Virus record (IMG/VR): IMGVR_UViG_3300042898_004326
Strand: one strand, 5' to 3'
DNA: 64,000 nucleotides
Source: an uncultured virus (IMG/VR IMGVR_UViG_3300042898_004326)
Taxonomy: Duplodnaviria; Heunggongvirae; Uroviricota; Caudoviricetes
Position 1 is the first letter of the stretch. The number at the start of each line of letters is the position of its first letter. Positions 8,331-39,778 of the stretch are shown here, one piece after another. Made by a program: the position numbers and the translations under genes. The notes under the pieces are model-generated. The model was given only the letters and a program-made list of their open reading frames with translations. It was not told the DNA's origin and did no database searches.

Positions 8331-9122
8331 ATGACGGGTGCACAATTTTGGTCATACTTACAACAAAAAATCGATAAAGCATACTCTGCTTACTTAGATA
8401 ATGCCAAGGCTAATGCTTTGATTGCAGAGACTATGCAGCGTTTGGTAGATAAGTATTGGCGTAAAGAGTCTTTGGAAGTTGATGCTGATGAGATGATGCC
8501 ATTTTTGGTTAAGGCTCAAAGTGTTGTTCCTGTTGCTGGTATTGCAAAAATTAATACGTTGCTTCCAAACTATATGCACATTATGCATTTGGTTGCAAAC
8601 TATGAGGTTCCATTCACAGTTACTTCTGTAAGCGGTACTACAATTACTTCACCTAACCATCTTCTTCGTAAAGGAGATGTCGTAAAAAGAAGCGGAACGT
8701 CTTATAATGTACTCAAAGTAAAAGGAGATACATTTGATGTAGGTGTATCTGGTTTAGCGACTACAAGTTGGGTGAGAGTTGTTGTGCGTAATGCAAAGCA
8801 AATGCAGTCTGATCGTAAGGGTAGTCCATTTCATAAGGCATCGATGAATACAGTTCGTTTTGAGCCTCAAAGCGATGGTACATCAACGCCTAAATCTTTC
8901 AAGATTTCTCCATCCGCAAACTTAGTAACTATTGATATAGATTATGTTCGAACATCACCCCTCGTTATTGACGTTGCCAATACGACTACGACATTGGAAG
9001 ATTATTATTCTAGTAAGTTCCTTTATCGTCTTATGGATGAGTGCGTGCTAAATTTTGGGACTCAGACAAAAGATCCAATGACTCGCCAAATGGCACAACA
9101 AGATATAATTGAAAATCCCTAA
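8331..9122 (+). CDS. Tail ring / head-tail connector protein
   Basis: Likely start is ATG 8331, after TATCTTTG; IDYVRTSP...CVLNF C-terminus and position resemble crAss-like ring proteins. Confidence 0.5.
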   Translation: MTGAQFWSYLQQKIDKAYSAYLDNAKANALIAETMQRLVDKYWRKESLEVDADEMMPFLVKAQSVVPVAGIAKINTLLPNYMHIMHLVANYEVPFTVTSVSGTTITSPNHLLRKGDVVKRSGTSYNVLKVKGDTFDVGVSGLATTSWVRVVVRNAKQMQSDRKGSPFHKASMNTVRFEPQSDGTSTPKSFKISPSANLVTIDIDYVRTSPLVIDVANTTTTLEDYYSSKFLYRLMDECVLNFGTQTKDPMTRQMAQQDIIENP

Positions 9123-9760
9123 TGATTTTATTGTCAGAAATAGTAGAAGAAATCCGTAACGACTTAAACAGCGGAATGTCATACAACGACAATCGTTGGG
9201 ATGATGAATACATCGAGTCTAAAATCCATAGTGCGAGAGCTACTCTTATTGGTCAGTATATGGTCAAGATGGGTAAGTTTATCAATGATTCTTGGGTTCA
9301 GACATTGGATATCAGTTTTGAAGACTACGAAAAAGATTGCAGCTTTGTAACTTTCGAGTGTCCCAATGTTATTTCTGTTGATGGTCATAATGATGGCTTT
9401 GTGTATGTTGGTCACGTTAATGGATTTAAGCCTTTTCCAAGAATCAGAAAAGGTTACAGCACATTAACTAGGCATTCTCTTTTTGCAAAAAAGAAAGAGA
9501 TTATGTGGGACTACAAACACTTGGAGCAGAACAGAATGCTTTTGCAATTCTACAATACTAACAAATTGCAGTATGTAGGAGTTAGAGCAATGTTTAACAA
9601 TCCTGTTTTGATTCCGAATTTTGATAAAACTATTGATCACTACCCAGTTGATTCTAACCTCAAAAGGGAGATAGTAGACCTTGTCACAAATGACCTGATT
9701 AGAAAAACTCAGCGTCCTGTTGAAATTACTCAAAATACACAAACTGAAATTCCTAGATAA
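9122..9760 (+). CDS. Tail ring protein
   Basis: LSEIVEEIRNDL N-terminus, RAMFNNP...YPVD C-terminus; TAATG coupling to neighbours. Confidence 0.5.
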   Translation: MILLSEIVEEIRNDLNSGMSYNDNRWDDEYIESKIHSARATLIGQYMVKMGKFINDSWVQTLDISFEDYEKDCSFVTFECPNVISVDGHNDGFVYVGHVNGFKPFPRIRKGYSTLTRHSLFAKKKEIMWDYKHLEQNRMLLQFYNTNKLQYVGVRAMFNNPVLIPNFDKTIDHYPVDSNLKREIVDLVTNDLIRKTQRPVEITQNTQTEIPR

Positions 9761-10257
9761 TGAAAATGGATGATATAATTGCAGCGGCTTGTGAGGAGTT
9801 AAACACTTCCTACGAGAACAATGCTTTGTGGTTTGAGGTATTGATTAACCAAGCAATACGGTCTCATAAAACAACCCATAAGTTGATTTTGAAAACTGTT
9901 GAACTTACAATTGCAGATAAGAAAGCAACTATACCTAGTGATTTTACTAAGTTAGTCAGAGTGTATTTTTGCGGAGGTCAAGTAAACGAATACTATTGCC
10001 CTGATGTTGATTACACTATTCAAGGCGATGTTTTAATATTTTATAAGGCTCTTGATGATAACACCAAAGTTCAATTAGAATACTATGGATTAAATACCGA
10101 TGAAGATGGCGTGTTTATTATTCCCAATGATTGGGAGCGAATGCTTGTTGCCTACATCGGATGGAAGTATACTAGAAGATATGCTAAAGACTTTGGAGTT
10201 GCTATTATGCAGAATTATCAGCGTGAATATCAAACCCAAAAATTAGCAAATATATAA
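9760..10257 (+). CDS. Tail tubular / ring protein
   Basis: IPSDFTKL...LEYYG...IPNDWERMLVAY resembles podovirus adaptor proteins. Confidence 0.5.
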   Translation: MKMDDIIAAACEELNTSYENNALWFEVLINQAIRSHKTTHKLILKTVELTIADKKATIPSDFTKLVRVYFCGGQVNEYYCPDVDYTIQGDVLIFYKALDDNTKVQLEYYGLNTDEDGVFIIPNDWERMLVAYIGWKYTRRYAKDFGVAIMQNYQREYQTQKLANI

Positions 10258-13200
10258 TGGCACAGGTAAGAGTAACACCTAGCGGTAATTTAGATAAAGA
10301 CGGAGAATTAAGCTACATCAGTAATGGTAACTATGTAGACGCAAATGATATTCGTCATCGCCAAAGCGTTGGAAACAACTTCGGAGGTATCATGGGTACT
10401 AATGGTAATTTAAATTTGATTACCACGGTCAATGGCTCGGCTGGAACAACTCTTCCTGCGGTTGCCACGACAACAAAACTCTATAGGATTTACTTAGACT
10501 ATTCTTACATCACAAATGGTTCTACAAATGCGTATACTGCAACTTTTGTTGTTGTTAGGCCATCTACAGGTGCTGTATTAAAAAGTACAAGTACATATAC
10601 ACACGTTATAGGAAATGACTTAGAAGATTTAGCGATTCAAATTCGTACTGTGTTTAATGGTCTTCATGCTTCTTTTGCTCCTGGTAGCTTTACCATGACT
10701 CCCGGAAGTAGTCCATTTTATACTTCAACAGGAACAGACAAAGGCTATTTTACTATGGCTACGACTGGAGAGAATGACTTTCAGATTAGAATTGATTTGG
10801 CTGATGCTAACACCAAATTTGCACAAGTTGTTTTGGTTGACGAATACATTGCAACAGCAACAACTTTACGCCCTATAGGATCTTATCAGTTAGAGGACTA
10901 TTTGTTTATTTGGTCTGCTAGTGAAACAAGCACTGGTGTGAAATCTGATGTTTCTGAAATAGGTGTTGTTTACAGTACGAACCAAGGATCTTCTTATCAA
11001 TACAAAACACTTTGCAGAAGTAGGAATCTTGGGTTTTTCAAAGAGAGAAGAATAGATGCTCAAGTTGAAAAGGCCGGGGCTCAGATTAATTTCTATTGGA
11101 CAGACGGAAATGAAAAACCAAGAGCAATGTACTTAGATTACTCTAAGGTAACAACTCAAAATGGTTTTATGTTTTGGGAAGGCGGTAGATACGAACACAA
11201 TACCATTGATGACGAAAGTGCTTTTTTCTTCAAGGTATCAAAATCATACATTGATGATATTGATGTGGTAAACGAAGGAGGTACTCTTACTGCTGGAAAC
11301 AAAAGATACACAGGTCGTTTCTTGAGTGAAGATTTAGTAAGTAGTGAGTTTTTATATCCCACTAATCCAATCAATATCTATGGTATAGATACAATAACTC
11401 CATCCCTTATTTACGGAGCCGAATCAGATTTTATCACAACTAAATCAGTAAATATGGTTGTGAAAAACATCACTCCAAATATTTACAAGTACTTTGAACT
11501 AGCAGTTATTGAATACGTAGATGATGCATTTACAACAACCATTGTTCAAAGATATACAATAGCTCAAGGCGAAACTGAATTGAACGTTCGTCATGTTGGA
11601 AGAGGACAGGACAATATACCTTTGGGTGTAAATGAGTTATTGGCAATTTATACTAGATATACGGCTGCTGAAAACATCAGAATATTTGATAACAGAGTAG
11701 TTTTGAGTAACCTAAAAGAACAAGTAGATTTAGATTTGCAAACTTGGGCTGCTCAAATCACACATAGTTTGGAGTCTAAAACAATACCTGCTTTGGGTAA
11801 TGTTGTAGAAACTTATCACGATTTTTTAGATGACGCAGGTAGATCTCCTCAGCCATCTACACAATTGCAAGCATTGCAATATGGATTGGATGAGTATTTA
11901 AATCCATTGAATACTTTGAATAACACTTCTTATATGTTCAATGATACATACAGATTTGGAATTCAAGTTAAATTAAAAGCAACTGGAAAATGGAGTGCTC
12001 CATATTGGGTGGATGATATTCGCTTTGACGATCTTTCTACTAATGTCGTAGGCTCACGAAGAACAGCGAACAACATAACTAGCAACTTAACAGATTCTAC
12101 CAATGAGAATGTTTATGTCAATTATGTTAAGTTTTCCAATATTGACTTAGACTATTCTGTTGGCGGCATTCCTTTGAGAAATTTAATTGAAGGTTTCAGA
12201 TTTACAAGAGCAGAACGCATTCCTGAAGTCTTAGCGACAGGATATTTCTTTTTAGGAGATACTAACGGAACAAATGGTAGAAAGCCATTTACATTGTTGC
12301 GTGGTACTGGTTTGGGAACTAGACCCTTTACTAATACAGATGTAAATACTACTTTAGATACAATTACATTAACTGCTCACGGATTAAGTGAAAACGAACC
12401 TCTTGAGTTTATTCAAGGATCTAGTCTTACGATAATTGGTGGTTTGTCAGATAGTATGTATTACTATGTTAATGTTGTGAATGCCAACACGATAAAACTA
12501 AAAGCAACTCCGAATGGTCCTCTTATCGATTTGACAAGTGTTTCAGTTGGTAGTTATTCTTTCTTTCGTGGTTTCGAAACCAAGACACATACAATAACCC
12601 CAACCAATGGTTCTGATGTATTATTTTTTCATTCTCCTGATCACTATTACATCGATAGAAATTATCAATTTACACCAAGTACCCATAAAATAAAAATTTT
12701 AGGACCGTCTAAAAGTTTAATTATGGTTGAGGTGGGAACAAACACTAAAGTTGGAATTTACTCTGATTATAGTGGTTATTTTTCTTCTGCTAAAAGAGCA
12801 TATTTGACACTTGATGATACTACAACTCCTTTGCTAGAAGATTATGCTTTGTTGGACTATTTGGCTACAAAAACACTACCGGTAGGAGGAGTTGTTGCTT
12901 CGGGATCAGGTAGTTTATTGTGCGATGCATTTGGTCTCAGTTTGCCTTTGCGTCCAAGTACAGGAAGTTATTTTTCTGCTGGTTTAGCAAACTCAGAAGC
13001 AGAAGGTATTTTCTACGGACAGATTTTTGTTGATTTAGGTGCGAATGAAAAATATCCTGTAAACAAAGAAAATACTGTATATCAAAGTACAGGGCATTAT
13101 TACTTCCTTACCGACAGCGATAGCGGAGTAAAGAATAATGTTGAGATATACGGAGGCGATATTTATACACAGAAAACGCATCTTCCTATTGCTTTAGATA

Positions 13201-14792
13201 AAATGGTTGGGTGTTATTCGCAAAATGTTGTGAATACTCAAATGATGTCAGTTCAAGAAGATCCTGGTGACAATTCTGTTGGATATCGTTGGCCTGTTTA
13301 CAGCAACAAAATAGGTACTTCAAGTTATTTTATTTGGCCGGTAGCTTATCGTGATTCTTGGTTTTCTCAAGGTAATATTTGGACTGGATTGGCAAACTTT
13401 TTTGCTCAGACAATACCGCCTCAGAGATTTTACAATCGTTCATATGATTATAATGATCGTTCACTAACAGAACGAGGTTATTTTAAAAATGACAGATTTA
13501 ATGGAGATTCGCCAACTAAAATAGTATGGTCGGCTAAAAAAGCAATTGGGTCGAATAAGGATAACTATAGATTGGGCTTCGGACCTACTGAATTCGCAGA
13601 ATTAGATTTGACATATGGTCCGATAGTTCACCACGAAATAATAAACAATTCGTTTTATAGTTTACAGCCGTTCTCTTTTCAAAGACAATACTTTAGAGAT
13701 GCATCTCTCATCGGTGCACAACAGGGTACAGATGTTGTTGTTGGAAGTGGATCGATACTTGGTTCTCCTGGACAAGAGTTGACATCCATTGGTTCTGAAT
13801 ACAAATGGAGTCAATTCAAAGGTCAGACTGAAGGAGGAAAAGAATCGTTCTATTGGTACAACAATCGCCTTAAGAAAATAATGCGATTTGGTATGGACGG
13901 TGTGCGACCTATCAGCGAGAAAGGTGTGATTACATTATTGCAGAAAAACACCAATTGGCTTTTGGATAAAAAGTATCCATTGACTGGATCAGGTATTCAT
14001 GGTGTGTGGAATGATAAGTATGGTGAAGCGATATTTACACTTAAAGCCATAAATCCAAATATTGCTGCTTGGGTGACCGCAACAAGTTATACAGCAGGTA
14101 CTTATGTGTTCATAACACCTTCTAGTACTTATTTGCACGCTTCGGGTTTGACGTATGTTTACAAGGCTAAAATTAATCACACTTCTGGGGCTTCTACTAA
14201 ACCAGAAACAGGAGCAAGTTGGCAAACAAACTGGGCAAAAATAGAACCTGGTACAGATGCATTTGCACATACTTGTTTGACCTTGGTTTATGATGAATTG
14301 AAAAATGGATTCGTAGCTACTCATTCATATTGGGCAGACATTTATTTGCCTTATCAGAATACATTCTGGAGTCCTAATCCAAACGCTAAGAACACTTTGT
14401 TTTTGCACGATGAGAATACTAATCAGACTTATTATGGAGCAACATATATCCCAACCATAACAGGGGTAATGAACATTGAACCCAACATCTCTAAAAACTT
14501 CGAAGCCATTCAGGTAAACTCAGAAATTTCTCCATCTTATGCTGATTTCTTTACAAAAAATCATCAGTCTTATTTGGATGAGACCGAATTTGACGCTCGT
14601 GAAGGATATTTTTACAGCGCTATAAAAAATGATATTTTAACTGCTCCGCTTGGGACTCCGATAGAAAATACTACAAGACTATGGGGCAAGTGGTTAAAAG
14701 TAAAAATATATCTTGAAGGAATAAACAACAATCAGAGGCTTATCAACTTCATCATCAAGTTTAGAGTAATGCCTCGTTTGTATAACCAATAA
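10257..14792 (+). CDS. Tail muzzle / stabilization protein (crAss-like)
   Basis: 1511 aa; N-terminal LDKD..Y.DA.DIR, YWTDG..KPR, YRFGI and C-terminal RLWGKWLKV; follows the ring genes. Confidence 0.65.
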   Translation: MAQVRVTPSGNLDKDGELSYISNGNYVDANDIRHRQSVGNNFGGIMGTNGNLNLITTVNGSAGTTLPAVATTTKLYRIYLDYSYITNGSTNAYTATFVVVRPSTGAVLKSTSTYTHVIGNDLEDLAIQIRTVFNGLHASFAPGSFTMTPGSSPFYTSTGTDKGYFTMATTGENDFQIRIDLADANTKFAQVVLVDEYIATATTLRPIGSYQLEDYLFIWSASETSTGVKSDVSEIGVVYSTNQGSSYQYKTLCRSRNLGFFKERRIDAQVEKAGAQINFYWTDGNEKPRAMYLDYSKVTTQNGFMFWEGGRYEHNTIDDESAFFFKVSKSYIDDIDVVNEGGTLTAGNKRYTGRFLSEDLVSSEFLYPTNPINIYGIDTITPSLIYGAESDFITTKSVNMVVKNITPNIYKYFELAVIEYVDDAFTTTIVQRYTIAQGETELNVRHVGRGQDNIPLGVNELLAIYTRYTAAENIRIFDNRVVLSNLKEQVDLDLQTWAAQITHSLESKTIPALGNVVETYHDFLDDAGRSPQPSTQLQALQYGLDEYLNPLNTLNNTSYMFNDTYRFGIQVKLKATGKWSAPYWVDDIRFDDLSTNVVGSRRTANNITSNLTDSTNENVYVNYVKFSNIDLDYSVGGIPLRNLIEGFRFTRAERIPEVLATGYFFLGDTNGTNGRKPFTLLRGTGLGTRPFTNTDVNTTLDTITLTAHGLSENEPLEFIQGSSLTIIGGLSDSMYYYVNVVNANTIKLKATPNGPLIDLTSVSVGSYSFFRGFETKTHTITPTNGSDVLFFHSPDHYYIDRNYQFTPSTHKIKILGPSKSLIMVEVGTNTKVGIYSDYSGYFSSAKRAYLTLDDTTTPLLEDYALLDYLATKTLPVGGVVASGSGSLLCDAFGLSLPLRPSTGSYFSAGLANSEAEGIFYGQIFVDLGANEKYPVNKENTVYQSTGHYYFLTDSDSGVKNNVEIYGGDIYTQKTHLPIALDKMVGCYSQNVVNTQMMSVQEDPGDNSVGYRWPVYSNKIGTSSYFIWPVAYRDSWFSQGNIWTGLANFFAQTIPPQRFYNRSYDYNDRSLTERGYFKNDRFNGDSPTKIVWSAKKAIGSNKDNYRLGFGPTEFAELDLTYGPIVHHEIINNSFYSLQPFSFQRQYFRDASLIGAQQGTDVVVGSGSILGSPGQELTSIGSEYKWSQFKGQTEGGKESFYWYNNRLKKIMRFGMDGVRPISEKGVITLLQKNTNWLLDKKYPLTGSGIHGVWNDKYGEAIFTLKAINPNIAAWVTATSYTAGTYVFITPSSTYLHASGLTYVYKAKINHTSGASTKPETGASWQTNWAKIEPGTDAFAHTCLTLVYDELKNGFVATHSYWADIYLPYQNTFWSPNPNAKNTLFLHDENTNQTYYGATYIPTITGVMNIEPNISKNFEAIQVNSEISPSYADFFTKNHQSYLDETEFDAREGYFYSAIKNDILTAPLGTPIENTTRLWGKWLKVKIYLEGINNNQRLINFIIKFRVMPRLYNQ

Positions 14793-17094: not shown

Positions 17095-20000
17095 ATGGCT
17101 CAGAACATAGATGAAGTTTACAGTGATTTAGTGCAAGACGAAAGATTTAAATCTTTGTATCCAACTCAATCAGATTTTGTTCAATATTTGGAAAATGAAC
17201 CAACTGCCGATGCTGATATTGAAGAGTTATTCGGTATTAGATCTGCTTCTGAATATTTAAAAAAAAAAGACCAGTCGATTATCCAAAACCTCGGAGAAGA
17301 AAATTCTTTTTCTCAATCTCCTTTGGTTGGACAGACTGAGCCGGTTTCCCAAGAACCTCAAGCGATGGTGGAACAGCCCCAACAGGGTGGTGACCAAAAC
17401 TTGGGAGGTGTAGAAGATCCCTATGGTTTGCAGGCACTTGGCTTGCCTCCTTTGGGTTATGGTAAATCAGCAGAGGGTGGGCCTCAGCCAACAAAAAAAG
17501 TCGATCCTGCTGTAGCACAATATGTAGGGTCATTAGACCTATTAGTAAAAGAGGCAAGAGGAAAAGGTGACATAACAGCACTAACAAATGTATTGAAGAC
17601 AATTGGTCAGTTTCAACTTGACCCTAAGTATTCTCAGTACGTCAAACAAGGTCAACTTAAAAACCAATACGATCAGTTAAATTCTGTAATTGCTGATATA
17701 TACGCTAAAAAGCCAATGGCATTTAGCGATAAGCAGTTTCAAGAAGGGCTGACAAAAATGGGTTTAATGAATCCTGTTGGGGCAAAACCACAAGTTTTAG
17801 AAACAGCTCGTAAAGAAAACAGTCCTACGATGTTTCCAAAACAACCCGGAGCACCTTTTATTCAGAAGCCCATTCAACAACTGATTGACGAGATAAGCAC
17901 ACCTGAGCCTTTGGATCAAAAATCTAAGGCTGTCATAAGTTATTTGTCTAGCTATGATGAAGAAAAAAATGCTTTTGATTATGATATTCAATTATTGATG
18001 GGTAACAATCAGAACCCAGGATATGAAATGAGTTCTACATTGAAGGCAGATTATTTGACTAGTCAAGAGCAAACCTTTGATAAAACGTTTCAAGCAGATG
18101 TTAATAATATGCTTGGCGATGCTATTTATAATTTACCTAATAATTTCTTTGATAATGATGCCATTATTAAAAAATCAGTAGAGGTAATTGATGGAAAAAC
18201 AGGAAATGTAAGAACTGTTACTGAAAACAAAGTAAATCCAAATAGAAAGTTGACCACAGACTACGGAATTTATATGCTCGATGATGCAGGAAATCCAAAA
18301 GTCAACCCTATTTATTTGGATCGATATGTTGAGCGTATGATGACCTTGCCTAGTGGTATTGTAACTCCGCAAGTTGTTGATGCTTTTAACATGAAAAGAA
18401 AAGCCTCAGGTTTAGATGAGTATACAAAGGAAGATATTGTTAAAATTATCAAACCTCGTGTGTTGCGTTTGGCTACTATTTCAGCACAACAAAATTTAGA
18501 AAATAGTATTGTTGAGCAAAGACTTGCGAAAATAAATGTATTTGAAGATGAGGTAGAAAAAGTAAACAGAGATTTGGATTATGATGTAAAAATGCTTGTT
18601 AGTAATTCTCAAAAGCTAATAAACAACTACCAAATTGAAATTGTAGAATCATCAAAAGAGGAGGTAGATGTTTTGACATCGAAACTTCAAAAAACAAATG
18701 AGCAGTTGTACAATGAGTACACCATTTCCGCTCAAAATACTGCTAGTCCAGAATTAAAAAATGCTGCGTATCAAACATATCTTCAGCGAGTAAGTGAAAA
18801 CTCATCTATGTATGAAGAGCAATTATCGGCAATAAGAAAAAATTCAGAGAATACTTTTAAAGATTACGCCTTGAAAATTGAGGGTGATGCTAAAGTAGAA
18901 CTAGATGGAATCAAGAAAAAATATGGTGTTGTTGCTGATGCGAATGAAGAAGGTAAATTGACAACAGCTGCCTATAGAAAATACGTAGAGGCATACAAAG
19001 ACCAATATAATCAGTACAAAACGCAAGAGCAAGTAAATAGTAATGCTATGGGTTGGCGATTAACTGATATTCTACAGTCTGGTTCAGCACGAGTTTTTGG
19101 AAACGCTATTCAGGCGTTAAATGCTGCTGTTGGATATGAAGATAATCCACTTACTGATTTGATGAAGTACATGGACTTTGTCCAAACCAAAAGTGAGGTA
19201 GCAATTAAACCTTTTTCGCAGGTTTTGGATGATGAAGGTTTATTTAGTGTACAGGCGTTAAAAACAGCGGTTCAGAGCACAGTTCAACAAGGTCCTAACC
19301 TTGGTATGGGTATTGCTGCAACTGCGCTTTCTGGAAACCCATTTATTGGTGGTTCTTTGATGTGGGGCTCAGAAACAATCGATCAAGTCGGACAAAACTA
19401 TAGAGATGTGTTCGCAAGGACAGGTTCTGTTTTGCAGGCTGAAAATGCTGCTGCTGAAACCCTTCAAACACAAATACTAATCGCACCTGTTTACACCGTT
19501 TCAATGTTGCCATTTACCAAAGGATTCTTGAGTAAGTTAGCAAGGGGTGGTAATGCTTTAGGGTTTGCGAAAAAGTTTGGTTATGGTTTGGCTTTGGAGG
19601 CAGGTGAAGAAATTCCAGTTGAAATCACTCAGAATTATTTGAGTTATAAATTTGGTACTGATACCCCCGAAAAGTTTGCTACTTGGTTAAGCAAAAATGG
19701 TGGTAATACTGCATTGGATGTATTGCCTTCTATTGCTGTTTTAGGTGGTGGTTCGGCAGGTATGGAAACATACTCTGAGCGTATGACCGAACAGGCAAAG
19801 GGCAGGGTTTTGGCTACATTGGGTCGTTTGGGTATGAGTCAAACGGTTGCCGATGCCATACAAGTTATTGGTGAAGGTGGGGTGAATATTCTCCCTGAGT
19901 ACTTGTATCGTACACAGCAAATTGACATCAATGAGTTAAAAGACATGAAAAGGGCCTTTGGTGAGGTTGTAAAAGCATTGCCACAAGCCCAAGAATTGAT

Positions 20001-23000
20001 TCGGGATCAGGATGCTCAGAAATACTATGTTACGCTTGCTAGTCGAAAAGCAGAAGTGCAAAGGAAACTAGAAGAAACTCAAGATGAATCATACAAAGAA
20101 AAGTTGACTGAGACCATCAAAAGCATCGATAAGAAGATGACTGACATGGCTGTAGGCAAGCCTCAGCAACTGACCAAAATAACATTTAAAGATGGCGGTA
20201 GTGTAGTTTTGGCCGATGATGAAATGGCTATATTTTTAAACAACAAAAATTTCTTAAATGATGTTGCTGACGGAACTACTCAAGTTACAACACAAGATTC
20301 TAATATCAATCGCATAGTCGAGGAGAAAAAGAAACAACTTGAAGTTGAAATAGAAGAGGCAACCGATAAAGGAGCTAAGGTGTTGAATGCGGCTCAGACA
20401 AAGGCAAAACAAAGAGGTGCTACTGTCAAGGATGGTAATAAGTTAAATGCGGTTGCCCAAAAAGCACGTCAGAATGGACAAAAGAATGTAGATAGTATAC
20501 TTAATGAGGCAACTGTTCTTCAGAGTGCTTTGACTGAACTTGCTCCCGGAGCTAGCATCGTGTTTTTGAACAACGATGAGTATTTGCAGACAATGGATGA
20601 GGTTGATGGTAAGGAAAATTCTGTAGGTAATTTTACTTATAAAAAGAATGACGATGGTACTTATTCTATTGAAATACAAATCAATTTAGATAGGGCAGTT
20701 AGTACAACTGTTGCACACGAGGTTGGCCATGCTTTGCTTCTTAGAACTTTAGGTATGGACCCAAAGTTGTTTGATACAATGCGTGCACAATTGAAAAATG
20801 TAATCGCAAGCAAGATAGACAATAGAGTTCTAGCCGATATTGACAAATTAATTTCTGACTATAGTTCAGTAGGGCAATCAGAAGAGTTCTTAGTTGAATT
20901 GGGCTCTATTATGGTTCTCAATCAGAAAAAATTGGAGATAAGCATAATTGAAAAAATTGCTAAAGTTATCTCTGATTTCATTGCCCGTATAACAGGCGGT
21001 AAGGTTCAGTTGTTCGACAAGATTTCAACTCGTGTTGATTTTGTGAACTTCATGAATGGTATGGTGGAAACCTTGAGTACCGGACAATTGGCAAAACCAA
21101 TAAAAGATAAAATAAATGCCGTTCAAGAGCAAACAGCAGGTCAAGTACCTGTACAGTCAGAAACCGGAGTTGGCCAAGAAATGGTCGAAGGAAAACCCAA
21201 AGCAGAATCTCAAGGTATTACCGAAGAAGGTAAAAACCAAGAAGAAGTAATTGTAGATGCTGTTGAAAATCCTCTTACTACAGAAGATGTAGAAGGAAGA
21301 GAAATTGAACCAGGCTACGAAGTGTTTGATCAGCCTATTGTTGTTGATGCAAGCAAAGGAAGAACAAATAGAAAACCATTTCGTTCTAAGGCTTCAATTA
21401 AAAGAGATTTTACAATTAGTGATAATGATTTTGCAGATGTAGATGCCATCGAAGGTAAAACTATGGTTGGTTTTATGGGTGATGTTCAAATAACAGGTAG
21501 CGTAACTACTCCAACCGGTCTTACTCTTAGTGGTTTTGGAGGACCCAATTATCCTGCTCAGGCTAACAGAAATCTTGAAAAAGATGCTGACGGTTATTTT
21601 GTAGGAAAAGCTGCTGTTTGGTCTTCTACATTTGAAGATAGCACAGGTAAATTGATGAAGCGTATGCAAGATGCAGAAGGTGCTCTTATTGGTGCTCAGC
21701 AAAATACTGGAATATTAGGCAACAGATTAATGTTGAGATATTTTGGTGAAGAGTTAAAAACAGCTAGTGAAAAAATAAATTCAGAGGAAACAATTGTTAA
21801 TTTTATAAATGAGAAAATAAAGACTCAGTTTAAAAAAGATAAGAATACAGGTGTAACATCTACTTTTTCTGAGGGTTTGGGTGGAGTTGAATCTTTTTCT
21901 TCTATCGAAGAATTTGTAGACTATTTAGATCCTTATTTTACAAGTGATCAGTTCGTTGCAAAATATCCAAACTCTAATAATATCGTACAAAAAGGAGACA
22001 AAAAAGTAACTTTACTTGAATCTAAAAATACAAAGAAAGACCGAAGAATAGTTCCCTACGAACTTAGAGGTGCTTTGTTTGTCAAGATGTTTAACATCGA
22101 TAGTCACAAAAAGTTTGGCTTACCGTCAATTGTACCAGGAAAAGGATATACTTATGATAAGACTGTTTTAGAGTATGCAAATGATACAATGTTTGGCGAG
22201 GCAGGTTATGGTGATTTTGTTGGTTTTGTTGAGTTTGATCCAACCACATTAAAGTTAGAAAAGGTAGATCAGTCTTCTGATTTCTTTAATCCTTCTTACG
22301 AATGGGTAATTACAGCAGAAAAGGTTCGCTTTAAGTATTTTAATGAGTTTGTTGATGGTCGTGCTTTGTTTTACGACAACACTTCTGCTTCTAAAGAAGC
22401 AAATCAGACTCCCTTTGGTCTCAGACCTAAGGCTGCTGCTGCAAGGGCAATTATGGGATCGCAGCCAATAACAACAATTGAGGCTGATAAGGTAAAAGAG
22501 CGTCAAAAAGGATTCGGAAGTAAATCACAATTAACTGCACCATCAAGTGACAAATGGTCTTCTTCATTGACTCAAGCACAGGTAGATGCTAAATTGGCTG
22601 AGACAGGTGTTAGAACAAAAACAGAAAACGATCGCTTGCTTCAAGAAACTCAAAAAGGTAACGAGACTCAGCGAAATAATATCAGCACCTATTCTTCTTT
22701 TGTAAACGGAATCATTTCGAAGTATGGAAAAGAAAACTTGGCAAGCAAAAACATTTTGGATGCTGGTGCAGGTTTGGGTATTGGTGCTAAAGCCGCAACT
22801 CAAGCAGGTATTGCTAATTCATACAAGACATTCGAACCATTCCCATCAATTAGCGATGGTAAGTGGGAGAAATTTAGCGGTACGCAACAACCTAACTTTA
22901 CTGACTTTGCTGCGATTGAAAACAACTCACAAGATATCCTTGTAAACAATGCGGTATTGAACGTGGTTCCTGCTGACATTCGTCAATCGATTGTAGAAAA

Positions 23001-26000
23001 TATTGGTCGTGTATTGAAGCCAGGAGGGCAGGCATATGTTTCTGTTCGTGGTATCAAAGAAAGTGCTTTGATGGAATCACTTGCGGCTGCAAAAGGCGGT
23101 AAGAGTAAGAACGTATTCCTGTCAGATAGTGAGTACTATGTTCCTGGAACACAGGGAGATTATCAGAAAGGATTTTCTGAGGTGGAATTGCAAGCCTATG
23201 TACAGGATGTGCTTGGGTCTCAGTACGATGTACAAATCTCAAGAGAACCATTCTGGAAGAGTAATGCAAACGCACCTAAGGTAGTAATAACCAAAAAGGA
23301 AAAAGCAACCGGACCATTTAAGAGCAAATCTCAATTAGACTTTACTCAAATCAGACCTGAGTACGATGCTGTAATGAATCAGCAGTTCGGAACAAAGAAA
23401 GCTGCTTACAAGGCTTTGGTTGAAAAGGGTTATACGCCAAAACGTATCAAGGAAGCTATTGGTTTGTATGATTTTGATGAGAGTGCATTTAAGCAGGCAC
23501 AATCAGAAATTGCTGTCAATGCCATAAATGCTGTTGCACAGACATACAACGATCGCCAAGATGAAATCAAAGATATGATTAATCAAAACATTGGCGATAT
23601 GGAGTCAATTTATGGAGATTTGATTGATCAAGGTTACAGCAATCTTGAAATCTTTACTGCCGCTAGAGATTTGGACTTCTTGTCTCCCCAAGATTTGGTA
23701 GATATTTTTGGTGCTGAATACAGACAAACAGTAAAGAAAGCAATCAATGCAAGTACTCCATACCCTACAGATTTCTTGGATGAGTTGGAAGATGATGCAA
23801 GAACATTGAAAGTTTCCCAGAGGGCCGCAGACGTTGCTGATGTCGTTCGTGAGACTGGTCTTGGTCTTGTGGATAGTGCTGTTGCTATTGATGCGCTTTT
23901 GGAATATTTGAAAACGAATGGTTTCGATCAGATTGCAATCGCCTTAACTGAAGGAGTAAAACAATTTGCAAAAGACAGAGGTATTTTAGAAAAAACCGCT
24001 GATTGGGCAGATGCTGTTACTAGTGGTACTTTGGGTGATAAATTGTACAGCCCTGAGGCAATAAACTACGCATTTAGTGTTTCTTCTGAATTGTTTAGCC
24101 AAGCAGGTCGTATACTTCAATTGGCTCGTTATTTCAATGAGACAAACCAATTGGCGATGATTGAAAGACAATTGAGTGCTAGTGGTGTTGTTTTAACACA
24201 AATGCAGAAGCAAACCCTAGAGGCTTTGGTTAATGATTACAAAGCAGCACAGGATGACAACAAAGCAAAATTGAAAGCACTTGAAGAAGATTGGAGTGAT
24301 CAGGCTTGGGAAGCATTCAACGAAAGTGAGAAAGCAGTTGGTATGGCTACCATTCGTGTTGCTCAGTTCTTGGAGGCCCGTAAACCTATCTTCTGGAATG
24401 AAAGATTGACATCTGGTGCAGCGAGGGCTTTGTTGAATGTTGGAACAACGGTATTGAGTTTTGTTGCCAACGTAGAAAACAACATTTGGAGCACAAACTG
24501 GGCGGCTCGGACCATTCAAAAGTTTAGAGATGCTTTGGGTAGCGGTATCAAAGGCAATACTCTTAGTTTTTCCAATTGGAGAATGGCTCGTAAACTTACT
24601 AGCAAGCGTATGTGGTTCGATATGCACAACAATGCGAAGTTTGGTGTAATGGATACGACTCAGGGTATTAACAGATACTATGACAACTTGGCACAGGTTA
24701 ACTTCTTCCGGGATGTCAAGTGGAATTACAATTTCATGAAGGCTATGGTTAAGAAAGTTTTGAATAGAGACTTTGAATCCATGACTCCTGAAGAGCAAGC
24801 CGATGCATACGATTTGACCTTGGTGAAATTGAAAAGTGGTGATGTTGAATTGCGTGATGGTAAAACATACACCTTTGCTCGTAGTTTGGCTTGGAGTTTG
24901 GGCACAGGGCCAATATTGGCCGCTTCACGAGGCAATGCTTCATTGTTATTGAATACAGGCGGTCCTTTGTTCGCAGAGGCCACAGGTCGTATCATGTCTT
25001 ATGGAGGTGATATTGCTTTTGGTTATATGGCTGCTCAACGTGCGATGATTGACTACTTCCAGAATGTTCAAGGGACTCGTTTTCAGAATGGTATTTTTGA
25101 CTCCATGTTGAACGAGGCTGATGGCAAAATGGATGAGAAGACAATTCGTGCTCTAAGCGAAATTTTGCGTGCAGATGCTGAGTTGTATTCTCGCTTTGAA
25201 AAAGAAGGTCTAAAGCGTACTTTACTTGGTGATAATATCATCTCTGGAGGTATCTCCTTGCTAAGAGGAAAACTTCGTAAAAAAATCCGTACACTCTACA
25301 CCGAAAACAGAAAAGTAGTTGGTGGATCGACCATCGCTGAAGAACTTAGAAGAGAAGTGCTTACAGGTAGAGGTTTGATAAAAAATACTTTGCAGGTAGT
25401 TGATGTCGGGTTGTTTACTTTGATGCCCTTTACAAAAGTTCCTGTGAACTTTTTGGGATCTGCGATTGCAAAGACAGTACCTTTTCTTGCTGGTCCTAAA
25501 TACATCTTTGCAGAAGGATTGTATCAATTTAAGTATAATGAGTTCAACAAAAAATATCCTGGTATTCCACCCTTAACTACCGACAAGCAAAAAAGAGATT
25601 ACGAAAAGGCAAAAATTGATTTGTTTGCCGCCAAGAGACAGGCAACCTATGATTCCGCTCAGTTCGTAACTAGTTTGGCAATTTATGGTATTGCGATGTC
25701 TGCTGTAAAGGCAGGTGCAATCCTAACCGATGGAGGTGGCGATCCAGAAAAAGAAAAGGCTTTGAAGACATTTGGTCTCAGAGGAGGTTTATATAACGCA
25801 ACATTACATTGGGAGTATCTTACATCAGGTATGCCATCTAACTTCCTAGCTCGCAGAAAGGGTTTTGCAAAAGAAGGAGATGTGATGCTTAACACAAACA
25901 ACGCTGGTTTCTTAGGTTATGCAATGGGCTTGTATGCTAGTGTATATGACGGAGAACGTAAGCAAGAGGCAGATAATGTGATGAGTCTTTTTGATACGCA

Positions 26001-27078
26001 AAAATCTGCTCTTAGTATGCTTGCTACTACTGCTGTTAGTAGTGGTATTGAAAACTTGCCGATGTTCCAAGGTTTGGCCCGTATTGGTGAGTTGTTAAAT
26101 GATTTGAAAACGCCAGAGTCAAGTAAAAATGCTTGGAATAATTTTGCCTCTGGTACATTAAGTACTTCTACAGCAGTTTTCTTCCCATCGTTCTTCTCGC
26201 TTATGTCCAAGGGTAACGCTGAAATGGTACAGAGCGCTGGTGAAATAAACAAGCGTGCTGAAAACCCTAATTGGCCTTCTGTATATGGTGATGTGGCAGT
26301 TCGTGTCGTTCAAAAATTGAATCGTAATATTTCATTTAATGAAGCCACAAGAAATGAGTACTACAAAGCACAGATTGGACCATTTGGAGAGGATTTGTCG
26401 TATAAAGTGACTGTTGCAGAACCTGGCACAGCAGCAGCTTATATACAAGCATTTATTGATCCTTTTGCGATAAGAATGTTCTCTGCGCCTGCGAAAGAAA
26501 ATCAAAAGGAAATCCAAGCCTATAGAGAATCTGCTCAACTTTTTGGTGGCATGACAAACTTGGCTTTGATTTTCCAACACATGACAGGTCGTGACTTCGA
26601 ATGGAAGCCAGATGGTAAAACTTCAAGTTTCTTTGGTATTATTACTAACCCTATGAAAAACCAATTCTCATACTCAAATTCTGCAAAGAATGTTGGTGGT
26701 TTGGATGAGGAAAATACTTACAAGTTATTTGACTATAATTTGCCTAATGATTTGTATCGCCAAGAGTTGAAGTTACGAGGTGAAGAGTTCCGCAAAGCGA
26801 TGAGAAAATATATTGGTAAGTTTGAAACAACTACGGCTCAGGTAAAAACTGCTGTAGAAGACGATGATTTGGAAAGAGCCAAAAGATTGATTACGGATGT
26901 GTTCGAAGAGTATCAGAGCACTTTGGCCGAAGCACAAAAAGATTATCTGTTAAACTACCAGACCAATAGAGAGAAGCAATATCTTAGCACTATGAACAAT
27001 AGAAAGTTGTTTACTGAGAAAGAAAAAGAGATAATGAAGAAGAATGGCTTCATGAATGAAGAGGGTTTGATTCCATAA
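17095..27078 (+). CDS. Giant polyvalent virion cargo protein with a zincin metallopeptidase and a class I SAM methyltransferase domain
   Basis: 3327 aa; VAHEVGHAL (His codon at 20716) with downstream SEEFLVE; ILDAGAGLG (22753) and DILVNNAVLNVV...LKPGG methyltransferase motifs; PFTKVPVN in the C-terminal region as in internal virion proteins. Confidence 0.75.
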   Translation: MAQNIDEVYSDLVQDERFKSLYPTQSDFVQYLENEPTADADIEELFGIRSASEYLKKKDQSIIQNLGEENSFSQSPLVGQTEPVSQEPQAMVEQPQQGGDQNLGGVEDPYGLQALGLPPLGYGKSAEGGPQPTKKVDPAVAQYVGSLDLLVKEARGKGDITALTNVLKTIGQFQLDPKYSQYVKQGQLKNQYDQLNSVIADIYAKKPMAFSDKQFQEGLTKMGLMNPVGAKPQVLETARKENSPTMFPKQPGAPFIQKPIQQLIDEISTPEPLDQKSKAVISYLSSYDEEKNAFDYDIQLLMGNNQNPGYEMSSTLKADYLTSQEQTFDKTFQADVNNMLGDAIYNLPNNFFDNDAIIKKSVEVIDGKTGNVRTVTENKVNPNRKLTTDYGIYMLDDAGNPKVNPIYLDRYVERMMTLPSGIVTPQVVDAFNMKRKASGLDEYTKEDIVKIIKPRVLRLATISAQQNLENSIVEQRLAKINVFEDEVEKVNRDLDYDVKMLVSNSQKLINNYQIEIVESSKEEVDVLTSKLQKTNEQLYNEYTISAQNTASPELKNAAYQTYLQRVSENSSMYEEQLSAIRKNSENTFKDYALKIEGDAKVELDGIKKKYGVVADANEEGKLTTAAYRKYVEAYKDQYNQYKTQEQVNSNAMGWRLTDILQSGSARVFGNAIQALNAAVGYEDNPLTDLMKYMDFVQTKSEVAIKPFSQVLDDEGLFSVQALKTAVQSTVQQGPNLGMGIAATALSGNPFIGGSLMWGSETIDQVGQNYRDVFARTGSVLQAENAAAETLQTQILIAPVYTVSMLPFTKGFLSKLARGGNALGFAKKFGYGLALEAGEEIPVEITQNYLSYKFGTDTPEKFATWLSKNGGNTALDVLPSIAVLGGGSAGMETYSERMTEQAKGRVLATLGRLGMSQTVADAIQVIGEGGVNILPEYLYRTQQIDINELKDMKRAFGEVVKALPQAQELIRDQDAQKYYVTLASRKAEVQRKLEETQDESYKEKLTETIKSIDKKMTDMAVGKPQQLTKITFKDGGSVVLADDEMAIFLNNKNFLNDVADGTTQVTTQDSNINRIVEEKKKQLEVEIEEATDKGAKVLNAAQTKAKQRGATVKDGNKLNAVAQKARQNGQKNVDSILNEATVLQSALTELAPGASIVFLNNDEYLQTMDEVDGKENSVGNFTYKKNDDGTYSIEIQINLDRAVSTTVAHEVGHALLLRTLGMDPKLFDTMRAQLKNVIASKIDNRVLADIDKLISDYSSVGQSEEFLVELGSIMVLNQKKLEISIIEKIAKVISDFIARITGGKVQLFDKISTRVDFVNFMNGMVETLSTGQLAKPIKDKINAVQEQTAGQVPVQSETGVGQEMVEGKPKAESQGITEEGKNQEEVIVDAVENPLTTEDVEGREIEPGYEVFDQPIVVDASKGRTNRKPFRSKASIKRDFTISDNDFADVDAIEGKTMVGFMGDVQITGSVTTPTGLTLSGFGGPNYPAQANRNLEKDADGYFVGKAAVWSSTFEDSTGKLMKRMQDAEGALIGAQQNTGILGNRLMLRYFGEELKTASEKINSEETIVNFINEKIKTQFKKDKNTGVTSTFSEGLGGVESFSSIEEFVDYLDPYFTSDQFVAKYPNSNNIVQKGDKKVTLLESKNTKKDRRIVPYELRGALFVKMFNIDSHKKFGLPSIVPGKGYTYDKTVLEYANDTMFGEAGYGDFVGFVEFDPTTLKLEKVDQSSDFFNPSYEWVITAEKVRFKYFNEFVDGRALFYDNTSASKEANQTPFGLRPKAAAARAIMGSQPITTIEADKVKERQKGFGSKSQLTAPSSDKWSSSLTQAQVDAKLAETGVRTKTENDRLLQETQKGNETQRNNISTYSSFVNGIISKYGKENLASKNILDAGAGLGIGAKAATQAGIANSYKTFEPFPSISDGKWEKFSGTQQPNFTDFAAIENNSQDILVNNAVLNVVPADIRQSIVENIGRVLKPGGQAYVSVRGIKESALMESLAAAKGGKSKNVFLSDSEYYVPGTQGDYQKGFSEVELQAYVQDVLGSQYDVQISREPFWKSNANAPKVVITKKEKATGPFKSKSQLDFTQIRPEYDAVMNQQFGTKKAAYKALVEKGYTPKRIKEAIGLYDFDESAFKQAQSEIAVNAINAVAQTYNDRQDEIKDMINQNIGDMESIYGDLIDQGYSNLEIFTAARDLDFLSPQDLVDIFGAEYRQTVKKAINASTPYPTDFLDELEDDARTLKVSQRAADVADVVRETGLGLVDSAVAIDALLEYLKTNGFDQIAIALTEGVKQFAKDRGILEKTADWADAVTSGTLGDKLYSPEAINYAFSVSSELFSQAGRILQLARYFNETNQLAMIERQLSASGVVLTQMQKQTLEALVNDYKAAQDDNKAKLKALEEDWSDQAWEAFNESEKAVGMATIRVAQFLEARKPIFWNERLTSGAARALLNVGTTVLSFVANVENNIWSTNWAARTIQKFRDALGSGIKGNTLSFSNWRMARKLTSKRMWFDMHNNAKFGVMDTTQGINRYYDNLAQVNFFRDVKWNYNFMKAMVKKVLNRDFESMTPEEQADAYDLTLVKLKSGDVELRDGKTYTFARSLAWSLGTGPILAASRGNASLLLNTGGPLFAEATGRIMSYGGDIAFGYMAAQRAMIDYFQNVQGTRFQNGIFDSMLNEADGKMDEKTIRALSEILRADAELYSRFEKEGLKRTLLGDNIISGGISLLRGKLRKKIRTLYTENRKVVGGSTIAEELRREVLTGRGLIKNTLQVVDVGLFTLMPFTKVPVNFLGSAIAKTVPFLAGPKYIFAEGLYQFKYNEFNKKYPGIPPLTTDKQKRDYEKAKIDLFAAKRQATYDSAQFVTSLAIYGIAMSAVKAGAILTDGGGDPEKEKALKTFGLRGGLYNATLHWEYLTSGMPSNFLARRKGFAKEGDVMLNTNNAGFLGYAMGLYASVYDGERKQEADNVMSLFDTQKSALSMLATTAVSSGIENLPMFQGLARIGELLNDLKTPESSKNAWNNFASGTLSTSTAVFFPSFFSLMSKGNAEMVQSAGEINKRAENPNWPSVYGDVAVRVVQKLNRNISFNEATRNEYYKAQIGPFGEDLSYKVTVAEPGTAAAYIQAFIDPFAIRMFSAPAKENQKEIQAYRESAQLFGGMTNLALIFQHMTGRDFEWKPDGKTSSFFGIITNPMKNQFSYSNSAKNVGGLDEENTYKLFDYNLPNDLYRQELKLRGEEFRKAMRKYIGKFETTTAQVKTAVEDDDLERAKRLITDVFEEYQSTLAEAQKDYLLNYQTNREKQYLSTMNNRKLFTEKEKEIMKKNGFMNEEGLIP
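21116..21250 (+). CDS. Overprinted small basic protein in the +1 frame of the giant gene
   Basis: MPFKSKQQVKYLYSQKPELAKKWSKENPKQNLKVLPKKVKTKKK*; ATG preceded by A-rich AAAAGATAAAATAA; TAA stop at 21248-21250. Confidence 0.65.
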   Translation: MPFKSKQQVKYLYSQKPELAKKWSKENPKQNLKVLPKKVKTKKK

Positions 27079-37266: not shown

Positions 37267-37500
37267 ATGAAATTCTTTCAGATATTCAAAGACGAGCAAG
37301 GTAAATTTTCATCCAACCGCTTCGTAGGTATTTTATGTGCCATTGCTTTGTGTGCTACTATGTATCACAACTCTTTTTCTGAAGAACACGTTGCTCCTTC
37401 TGCTATTTTGGTAGAGTGTGTAACTGCCCTTGCATTTGGTGCATTGGGTCTCGGAGCAGCTAATAAAATCTTCAAGAAAAAAGAAGATGCCGAAGGATAA
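37267..37500 (+). CDS. Holin-like membrane protein
   Basis: 77 aa, FSSNRF motif, two hydrophobic helices, basic C-terminus. Confidence 0.55.
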   Translation: MKFFQIFKDEQGKFSSNRFVGILCAIALCATMYHNSFSEEHVAPSAILVECVTALAFGALGLGAANKIFKKKEDAEG

Positions 37501-37777
37501 GCCCATAGCGAAAACAACTAGAGGCAAGAACGCCAACTATCTCCCCACAAAGAGTGGAGCAGGTATGACGGCTAAAGGTGTTGCTGCTTATCGTAAAGCA
37601 AACCCCGGATCAAAGTTAAAAACAGCCGTAACTGGTAAGGTTAAGGCAGGTAGTGCAGATGCTAAGAGACGCAAATCATTTTGTGCTCGTAGTGCTGGCC
37701 AAATGGCAAATTTTCCCAAAGCAGCCGCAGATCCAAACTCACGTTTGAGACAGGCTCGTAAAAGATGGAAGTGTTAA
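37487..37777 (+). CDS. Basic protein, DUF6321-like
   Basis: Likely start is ATG 37487; GAGMTAKGVAAYRKANPGSKLK...RRKSFCARS...RWKC. Confidence 0.7.
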   Translation: MPKDKPIAKTTRGKNANYLPTKSGAGMTAKGVAAYRKANPGSKLKTAVTGKVKAGSADAKRRKSFCARSAGQMANFPKAAADPNSRLRQARKRWKC

Positions 37778-37778
37778 T

Positions 37779-37874
37779 ATGTACAACTGTAATTTTGTAG
37801 CTAAGAAGCTAGAATATAATAACTCAAAGCCCACCAAGGCAAGTGGTAAGGTGAAAGTAAAGAAAAACAAATGA
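37779..37874 (+). CDS. Tiny Lys-rich ORF
   Basis: MYNCNFVAKKLEYNNSKPTKASGKVKVKKNK*; fills the intergenic gap; ATGA overlap with the next gene. Confidence 0.45.
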   Translation: MYNCNFVAKKLEYNNSKPTKASGKVKVKKNK

Positions 37875-38083
37875 TATACGGAAAGAAACCGATGAAAAGC
37901 ACCACCAAGGTTACTGCATCAAAAGCAACAAAACCACCCGTAAAGGTAGCGATGAAAATTGAAAAGAAGTTTGTGCCAAAAACTAAGCAAATGATGAAAA
38001 TCGAAAAGGAGTTTGTACCAAAACTAAAACCTGCGATGAAAATCGAAAAGAAGATTATGCCAAAAATCAAATCTAAGAAATGA
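37871..38083 (+). CDS. Lys-rich protein with three 14-aa repeats
   Basis: MKIEKKFVPK / MKIEKEFVPK / MKIEKKIMPK. Confidence 0.65.
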   Translation: MIYGKKPMKSTTKVTASKATKPPVKVAMKIEKKFVPKTKQMMKIEKEFVPKLKPAMKIEKKIMPKIKSKK

Positions 38084-38367
38084 AAAAGACCGTAAAGAAA
38101 GCACCTCCGAAATTATCTCTATATGCATATGGAGAAGGAAAGAATATAGGTGGAGGAGGAACTGTTTCTGTTCAGCGCAAGAAAACAACTATAACCGGCA
38201 AGGCTGATTTTGCTCCTGGTTATAGAAGTGCCGATATCGGTGTAGAGAGAAGAGTAAATAAAAATCTTACTCTTGGGGCTCAGATCGGAACAGGAAAGTC
38301 TTACGGAGCAAATGTCAAATTAAATATACCAATTAAATCCAAGAAAAATGGCAACAAAAAACGATAA
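38080..38367 (+). CDS. Basic protein with amphipathic beta strands
   Basis: 95 aa, coupled by ATGA. Confidence 0.6.
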   Translation: MKKTVKKAPPKLSLYAYGEGKNIGGGGTVSVQRKKTTITGKADFAPGYRSADIGVERRVNKNLTLGAQIGTGKSYGANVKLNIPIKSKKNGNKKR

Positions 38368-38605
38368 AAAGAAAGGCTCACCATCTATGACAGAGTATAT
38401 GATGAAGAGAGCGGCTATGGGTGGCATTAATGCACCAAAAACTTCTTCACCTGCAACGACTCCAGTTTTTAGGCAGGAACCAATGACTCAGTCTCAACAA
38501 GACAGCATGGCAGCCTACGTTAAGTACAGAATTCCTGAACTTAAACCAAAAGGCCAACCTAAGAAATATATAGGAATGCAACCAACAAAACCAAAAAAGA
38601 AATAA
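38348..38605 (+). CDS. Small basic protein
   Basis: K/P/M-rich, ends KPKKK. Confidence 0.6.
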   Translation: MATKNDKKKGSPSMTEYMMKRAAMGGINAPKTSSPATTPVFRQEPMTQSQQDSMAAYVKYRIPELKPKGQPKKYIGMQPTKPKKK

Positions 38606-38609
38606 AATT

Positions 38610-38834
38610 ATGTCATACGGAAAAATGATGGGAAAGTCGGCAGGAACGCCAGCGCCCAAGATGAAAACAACAGGAAAAAGTGGTGGATCACTAGGTCCTA
38701 AAATGAAAACTCCAAAAGCGAAACCTCCTGGAAAGGTAAATATGCCTGCTTATCCTGGTAAAGGCACGGGTAAAAAAGTAAATATGCCTGGTAAGTTTGG
38801 TAAAGGCACTGTTGTAAAGAAAAGAATGTTATGA
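38610..38834 (+). CDS. Small K/G/P/M-rich basic protein
   Basis: 74 aa with no acidic residues; KVNMP occurs twice. Confidence 0.6.
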   Translation: MSYGKMMGKSAGTPAPKMKTTGKSGGSLGPKMKTPKAKPPGKVNMPAYPGKGTGKKVNMPGKFGKGTVVKKRML

Positions 38835-39774: not shown

Positions 39775-39778
39775 AGAA

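Follow-up and report, generated by a model that had tools for sequence, protein, structure and literature searches.

A probable small gene of the phrog_1375 family nested out of frame (+1) within a giant virion-module gene of an uncultured Caudoviricetes phage

We analyzed a 64,000-nucleotide stretch of DNA (hereafter, the window) from the uncultured virus IMGVR_UViG_3300042898_004326 (Duplodnaviria; Heunggongvirae; Uroviricota; Caudoviricetes). The window represents most of a phage genome and was found in DNA runs labelled as lake or freshwater metagenomes. Its virion module contains, downstream of ring-protein and muzzle-like genes, a giant open reading frame (ORF) of 3327 codons on the plus strand (17095..27078), the product of which is presumed to be a packaged or ejected "cargo" protein. 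Wholly inside this ORF and on the same strand lies a small ORF of 135 bases (21116..21250) with an ATG at 21116, 44 codons, and a TAA at 21248–21250. The distance between the two starts (21116 − 17095 = 4021) equals 1 modulo 3; thus, the embedded ORF occupies the +1 frame of the giant one. An earlier note on this DNA, made from the sequence without database searches, had pointed to this ORF and to an acidic low-complexity linker in the outer frame. Our translation gave the same 44-residue peptide that the note quoted, and the frame-0 reading of the segment (21115..21249, plus strand; giant residues 1341–1385) is indeed an acidic low-complexity spacer with 9 Glu and 3 Lys.

The 44-residue peptide contains 15 Lys and 2 Glu and has a net charge of +13. 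An AlphaFold2 model built on a 73-row alignment (mean pLDDT, the predicted local distance difference test, of 86.4) predicted two helices, at residues 6–15 and 17–26, forming a hairpin, followed by an extended Lys-rich tail. The embedded ORF was delimited as a gene from the sequence, a match to phrog_1375, the family of relatives described below, the codon phase, and this model.

The match of the peptide to phrog_1375 had a modest score (E 5.5e-4, 21.3 bits; residues 3–43 on profile positions 17–60 of 70), and the same profile was matched by 20 of the 38 relatives scanned at E ≤ 1e-3. A word-indexed search gave 35 candidates, among which 31 proteins of 40–60 residues matched at E ≤ 0.1. A scan of viral contigs confirmed at least 421 relatives among the 600 pattern matches listed, and 80 loci were retained from it. 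Of 1.84 billion cluster representatives searched with a family profile, 4413 were matched at E ≤ 1e-3, and 795 of these reached E ≤ 1e-10; the domain began at residues 1–3 in 138 of the 150 best representatives, in proteins of 50 to 1075 residues. Residues M1, P2, F3, K4, S5, and Q8 were invariant in the family alignment, both with 32 and with 73 sequences, which also displayed a conserved aromatic/Pro/Ala core and a tail of the LPKKVKKK type. Among the annotated stand-alone homologs is gp48 of Streptomyces phage FlowerPower (YP_009838084.1, 72 amino acids). The resemblance to a stand-alone family of small phage proteins, pointed out in the earlier note, was therefore confirmed by phrog_1375, the 31 small proteins, and the 421 or more relatives.

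Neither the peptide nor the 73 relatives had a match in Pfam (E ≤ 10) or NCBIfam. A fold search in BFVD yielded, with E values no better than 0.1, only uncharacterised family members, small proteins of uncultured Caudovirales among them. When the family profile was run against PDB sequences, the only hits were designed beta-propeller repeats, scored by the summing of many sub-threshold repeats, and these were regarded as spurious. Members of DUF3008 (PF11450) also open with a short MP.KS-like motif. A search of a language-model atlas yielded only unnamed small clusters and one viral cluster linked to DUF3008 (score 0.84; 15% of its members carry DUF3008). Membership in DUF3008 was rejected, as none of the 73 family members matched it at E ≤ 10. 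In the literature, neither the string MPFKSK nor the family was found, including papers on overlapping or embedded phage genes and on unannotated small proteins, the search covering texts and not supplements. Longer family members had varied C-terminal parts, mostly of no known kind, several of them with Gly/Ala-rich hydrophobic stretches. At four loci (L073, 10001–11347; L076, 9832–10389; L080; L079), in-frame longer forms were present, with the domain heading proteins of more than 449, 186, and 93 residues; L073, located on a contig of 458,729 bases, and L076 were scanned and had no Pfam or PHROG match.

Genomic contexts were classified with a script that required an exact MPFKS start and an ORF of 30–90 codons; copies with identical DNA were collapsed into one. 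These requirements left out L027, L029, L045, L073, L076, L079, and L080, which were inspected separately; others, e.g., L010, L022, and L023, were left out as identical duplicates. The +1 frame of ORFs of at least 1000 codons harbored 29 copies. Among these are the copies of the named phages Flavobacterium elemovirus MT497078.1 and MW202828.1; in both records, the annotation over the nested ORF consists of the giant coding sequence alone. Mid-sized ORFs carried another 17 copies, likewise in the +1 frame: 14 in a gene at the scaffold position, 2 in giant ORFs cut by contig ends, and 1 in an ORF of 701 codons. The scaffold-position gene has its own ATG and about 385–440 codons, and has the portal gene on one side and a capsid-like gene (phrog_13704) on the other; the small ORF begins 25–65 codons into it. 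There were 24 stand-alone copies and 3 copies overlapped by short open frames only. None of the distinct copies classified used the +2 frame relative to a long ORF. Stand-alone homologs, which the earlier note had proposed to look for, were thus found, these 24 and FlowerPower gp48 among them.

A hidden Markov model (HMM) of the family matched the window only once, at the nested ORF (E 1e-24), with no other match at E ≤ 10, and a second real family copy was not detected at any locus scanned with this HMM. In the elemovirus MT497078.1 (locus L001; Flavobacterium phage vB_FspP_elemo, which grows on Flavobacterium sp. BAL314), the nested ORF occupies 3583–3711. The frame-0 string EDAVQKQ occurs twice in its giant protein; the copy upstream of position 3583 was not scored by the family HMM.

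The 29 distinct giant-nested loci were aligned in the giant frame from 360 bases upstream to 480 bases downstream. The nested segment formed a conserved island, the flanks of the giant protein being barely alignable. Mean pairwise nucleotide diversity within the island was 0.278, 0.216, and 0.441 at the first, second, and third codon positions of the small gene, which means that in the giant frame the third position varies least and the first varies most. As a control, we took every part of these giant ORFs beyond the nested segment that was aligned by BLASTP; there, the giant-frame third position was the most variable in every identity band (e.g., 0.258/0.162/0.519 at 60–69% identity). Compared with the second position of the small gene, its third position was more variable in 31 codons and less variable in 6 (sign test, p 2e-5, a value that overstates independence because the figures are pairwise and the sequences related). 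In the window's own clade (17 sequences), the diversity was 0.179/0.115/0.385, with 30 codons against 4. The reversal of phase relative to the control is plain in spite of the generous p-values. The nearest relative, G001 (94% nucleotide identity over 1.2 kb), encodes an identical peptide; over the 135 bases it differs at a single site, where the substitution is silent in the +1 frame and replaces Ile with Val in the giant frame.

The ATG, the stop codon, and the length of the small ORF were intact in all 46 nested copies. The host frame had no stop codon across any of these 46, as compared with 1–10 stops in the equivalent frame of each of the 24 stand-alone copies. The codon for Phe3 was TTC in every nested copy and TTT in 13 of 24 stand-alone ones; it is always TTC in the former because TTT followed by AA would create TAA in the host frame. 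The comparison of homologs indicates that selection keeps both frames. The giant gene evidently tolerates the embedded segment as a variable acidic spacer. The earlier note had proposed a dual-coding locus with a linker shaped by the nested gene, and suggested checking the preservation of the +1 ATG and open frame and the suppression of synonymous variation in frame 0; the 46 intact nested copies, the low variability of the giant-frame third position in the segment, the homologs, and the +1 codon phase all agree with that proposal.

The same segment might be explained without any separate gene if selection preserved a motif of the giant protein (..AVQEQ..), the open +1 frame being its by-product. 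The frame-0 text of the segment is alignable among giant genes too, and an alternative-frame ORF of 44 codons is not rare by length: 97 same-strand ATG ORFs are present in alternative frames of the giant ORF, and 3 of them have 44 amino acids or more. By length, the embedded ORF is no rarer than chance; it rises above chance owing to homology and conservation. The string AVQ(E/K)Q, although motif-like in giant proteins, is the host-frame reading of the MPFKSK codons. A constraint on the giant protein is at odds with the third position of its frame being the least variable in the segment and the most variable elsewhere in the same genes, with the host-frame stops in 24 of 24 stand-alone genes, and with the replacement of the frame-0 segment by a shorter unrelated spacer in two close relatives (L088 and L089, see below). 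We consider the motif explanation highly improbable. The 135-base ORF is very likely a real protein-coding gene of the phrog_1375 family, embedded in the +1 frame of the giant virion-module gene.

A putative internal translation start region (21090..21115, plus strand), A-rich and weakly folding, is located just upstream of the embedded ATG. In the 29 giant-nested copies, the mean A fraction of positions −20 to −1 was 0.559, compared with 0.348 for the 4708 remaining ATGs inside these genes (Mann–Whitney p 1e-15), in agreement with the A-rich upstream described in the earlier note; before the 20 long-ORF starts of the window, the fraction was 0.475. The folding energy of the region from −30 to +30 was −3.71 kcal/mol, whereas 557 randomly chosen places within these genes gave −9.04 kcal/mol (p 4e-12), A-richness and weak folding being mutually dependent measures. 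Four nested relatives (L015, L020, L060, and L068) had GGAGG a few bases upstream of the ATG instead. We failed to find a slippery motif or a long A-run common to the nested copies in the 36 bases upstream; only A/purine richness was shared.

The start region bears on a second explanation, according to which the peptide is a basic C-terminal tail added to a truncated giant protein by an upstream +1 ribosomal frameshift or by transcript slippage. The A-rich upstream region would suit such an event, and one protein, P0173 (1075 amino acids), shows that a product of this kind occurs in nature: it carries the peptide in frame (residues 1034–1074) after a homolog of the N-terminal half of the giant protein. 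P0173 is a single cluster representative, either a real alternative architecture or the result of an assembly indel. None of the 46 nested copies has lost the ATG, and stand-alone members begin at the same Met; moreover, the lack of a common slippery motif or A-run, together with GGAGG in four copies, argues against frameshifting as the normal route into the +1 frame. On balance, the frameshift explanation seems improbable.

The conservation of the small gene was accompanied by strong divergence of its hosts. BLASTP (E ≤ 1e-5) with the giant ORF of the window found no match for 12 of 28 other giant ORFs, and several others aligned over 43–72 residues only, while the nested peptides were 48–93% identical to that of the window. 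When contigs of four lake runs were mapped on positions 20700–21700, the summed depth rose from about 18–70 to 900–1600 over 21108–21175 only; this indicates that many other phages in those lakes share just that segment. Many lake contigs diverged from the window at 21113–21116 and at 21184–21231. The window's 32-mer just upstream of the ORF was found in viral contigs only in the G001 contig and not at all in metagenome contigs, and protein queries from the flanks also matched only the G001 contig among viral contigs. No direct or inverted repeats flanking the ORF were detected in the window beyond short chance-like matches.

Two metagenome contigs, L088 and L089, are close relatives of the locus (81% nucleotide identity upstream and 91% downstream) and lack the embedded gene at this site. 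Their spacer (2937–2971) is different and about 75 bases shorter, which indicates that this stretch of the giant protein is dispensable. The family was not matched in the 5.6 and 6.5 kb examined, so that in these phages the gene is either dispensable or encoded elsewhere on the contigs; their state may represent either a loss or the condition before the gain. The +1 frame of their spacer contains a 22-codon Lys-rich stretch from TTG to TAG. The idea that the L089 spacer is a demonstrable deletion relic was dropped, since its +1 stretch had no BLASTP similarity to the peptide; a 56-mer of the L089 linker had no match in viral contigs. A third allele was present in a 3581-base lake contig (run X9), in which 413 other bases replace 21114–21238 and both flanks match the window, with 37 differences in 414 bases upstream and 4 in 462 downstream.

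These alleles are what speaks for a third explanation, a relic: an engulfed gene that is neither expressed nor needed in this phage and has merely not decayed. The L088 and L089 flanks, 81–91% identical to the window, do without the gene at the site, and the lake contig has other bases in its place. A relic would hardly be expected to retain its start, stop, and length in all 46 nested copies, the host genes of which are very divergent; the +1 codon phase is seen within the window's own clade as well, the peptide of G001 is identical, and the nested ORF is the sole family copy in the window. We regard a relic as improbable too.

Several observations nevertheless weigh against an embedded, functional gene. 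In addition to its ordinary length, the relatedness of the sequences behind the sign test, and the mutual dependence of the two start-region measures, the gene is absent from the site in L088 and L089, and P0173 contains the peptide as part of a longer protein. No RNA sequencing run containing the embedded stretch was present among the runs matched. The neighborhoods of the 15 annotated stand-alone loci are not uniform: a portal, scaffold, terminase, tail, or virion-structural gene was located at most 2–3 genes away in 8 of them, while 3 were among nucleotide-metabolism or replication genes, 1 (L034) had only a phrog_7595 protein and an endonuclease as neighbors, and 3 had no annotated neighbor.

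The tree of 73 peptides was based on few columns and had many unresolved forks, and contexts were clustered on it far above shuffles. Its well-supported branches implied at least 3 changes of the "giant" label, and the window's clade (19 giant-nested rows) was placed inside a supported set that also contained two scaffold-position rows. Together with the alleles described above and P0173, this pattern fits an old stand-alone gene that was repeatedly engulfed by, fused to, or lost from its neighbors. A more mobile history is conceivable, in which the small gene is a stowaway cassette that moves between phage genomes and persists in the disordered linker of a giant virion gene or at the start of a scaffold-position gene, surviving at such sites because the host frame can stay open across it. 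It would explain the 3 or more host changes and the near-identical copies in giant genes with no other detectable similarity; it would also explain the alleles with the gene present (window, G001), absent (L088/L089), or replaced (413 bases), and the break points at the ORF ends. We consider such a cassette unlikely.

For the embedded gene, the following route of expression and origin can be proposed. On the late structural mRNA, ribosomes would start at the AUG at 21116, where the sequence is rich in A and poorly folded; such a region would fit start sites without a Shine–Dalgarno sequence, as in phages of Flavobacterium-type hosts. The predicted product would be the 44-residue protein with its short helical hairpin and lysine tail. 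The gene may have originated as an older stand-alone gene of the head module, engulfed when a neighboring gene was read across it in the sole frame able to stay open. Engulfment of this kind would make the small gene the older reading and the spacer of the giant gene the younger one.

As for function, the small protein may possibly be internal to the head or associated with ejection, binding DNA or acidic internal proteins through its lysine tail; the earlier note had likewise guessed at binding to DNA or to the acidic cargo. This tentative assignment was made because of the gene neighborhood and one fusion; that these are its sole basis also counts against it. In 8 stand-alone loci, the gene for a phrog_7595-like small basic protein of about 100 amino acids was no more than about 1 kb away, and in one giant-nested locus it was at a distance of 6 kb (L053, 9329–9628; L063, 6215–6511; L034, 6461–6757; also L032, L035, L061, L066, L082, and L056). 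In the protein P0151, a phrog_7595 domain is fused to the family domain (E 2e-31). The phrog_7595-like protein also matches a part of phrog_220, annotated as "minor head protein and DNA pilot". No phrog_7595 match was found in the window.

The giant protein itself had Pfam matches to methyltransferase domains only and no PHROG match at E ≤ 1e-5. The methyltransferase-like domain (22711..23049, plus strand; giant residues 1873–1985) is located downstream of the embedded gene and matched PF08241 with 23.9 bits (cut-off 21.2) and PF13489 with 23.9 bits, below the cut-off of 27. The protease domain that the earlier note had placed before the linker could not be substantiated: an HEVGH motif (20716..20730, plus strand; giant residues 1208–1212) was its sole sign, and Pfam and PDB sequence searches gave no match there. 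Frame 0 of the giant ORF also contains two look-alikes of the N-terminal motif of the family, ..KPFRSKAS.. at 21394–21440 (about residue 1434) and ..GPFKSKSQ.. at 23332–23380 (about residue 2080); they were not scored by the family HMM and could be chance or decayed in-frame copies.

Upstream of the giant gene, ring protein 2 (9122–9760; PF25702, E 1.3e-10) and an SU10 adaptor/ring 1 protein (9760–10257) were encoded, and a muzzle C-domain was weakly matched within 10257–14792 (PF25729, E 1.7e-3, below the cut-off). The window also encodes a portal protein (phrog_6547), and its ring and adaptor proteins are of the crassvirus type. The giant gene is followed by genes for fibre-like proteins, ribonucleotide reductase, the large terminase, DNA polymerase, and primase/helicase. 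A series of small ORFs in a strongly A-rich stretch occupies 37430–41274 on the plus strand (AT skew 0.32 and 0.22), most of them without a PHROG match. The kinship that the earlier note had suspected between the nested ORF and the K-rich ORFs at 37.5–41.9 kb was not supported, as the family HMM matched the nested ORF alone (E ≤ 10). In the early region on the minus strand, the genes at 55083–55775, 56423–57040, and 59346–60101 comprise one resembling serine recombinases/invertases (phrog_95, E 4e-67; phrog_125) and two for DNA methyltransferases (phrog_757).

Because gene callers forbid a gene within a gene, phages that embed the small protein lack it in their annotation. Given the great size of the family and its presence in head and virion modules of numerous unrelated tailed phages, a conserved, possibly structural small protein seems to have been overlooked. 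The locus may serve as a clean natural example of reverse overprinting, in which an old small gene was swallowed by a fast-evolving giant gene, and is relevant to models of the growth of giant phage proteins and to the measurement of selection in their linkers. The same arrangement is present in cultured elemoviruses of Flavobacterium.

In overprinted genes of small viruses such as phiX174, as proposed for our locus, a single DNA stretch is read in two frames for two proteins, and each frame constrains the codons of the other; in the classical cases, it is usually the embedded frame that is new. At the locus studied here, in contrast, the embedded gene would be old and is widely conserved, while the surrounding frame would be young and is poorly conserved. 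As compared with known members of phrog_1375, the nested gene shares the N-terminal MPFKS..Q motif, the helical hairpin, and the basic tail; the known members are annotated as stand-alone genes, whereas the gene of the window is embedded, and its counterparts in MT497078.1 and MW202828.1 are unannotated.

Another embedded phage gene, Rz1 of lambda, lies in the +1 frame of its host gene. Spanin gene pairs occur embedded, overlapped, and separated across phages, according to Kongari et al. 2018 (PMC6139136). The lambda Rz/Rz1 pair (PMC6139136) is similar to our locus in that a larger phage gene fully encloses a small one read in a different frame, and in that the small gene is found separated as well; it differs in the host gene, which at our locus is a giant virion-module gene, or one at the scaffold position, and not an i-spanin gene. 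A spanin identity of the peptide was rejected: it is soluble and highly basic and has no Cys, no hydrophobic N-terminal segment, and no signal sequence; lacking Cys, it has no lipobox. In crassviruses, large genes following the muzzle gene encode cargo proteins that are kept inside capsid and tail and ejected into the host, as stated in the sections of Bayfield et al. 2023 (PMC10172136) drawn on here. The giant gene of the window, downstream of ring-protein and muzzle-like genes, is likened to them by its position, and an embedded small gene is not mentioned in those sections of PMC10172136. The embedded gene belongs to a known kind, that of embedded out-of-frame phage genes, and its function is probably virion-related.

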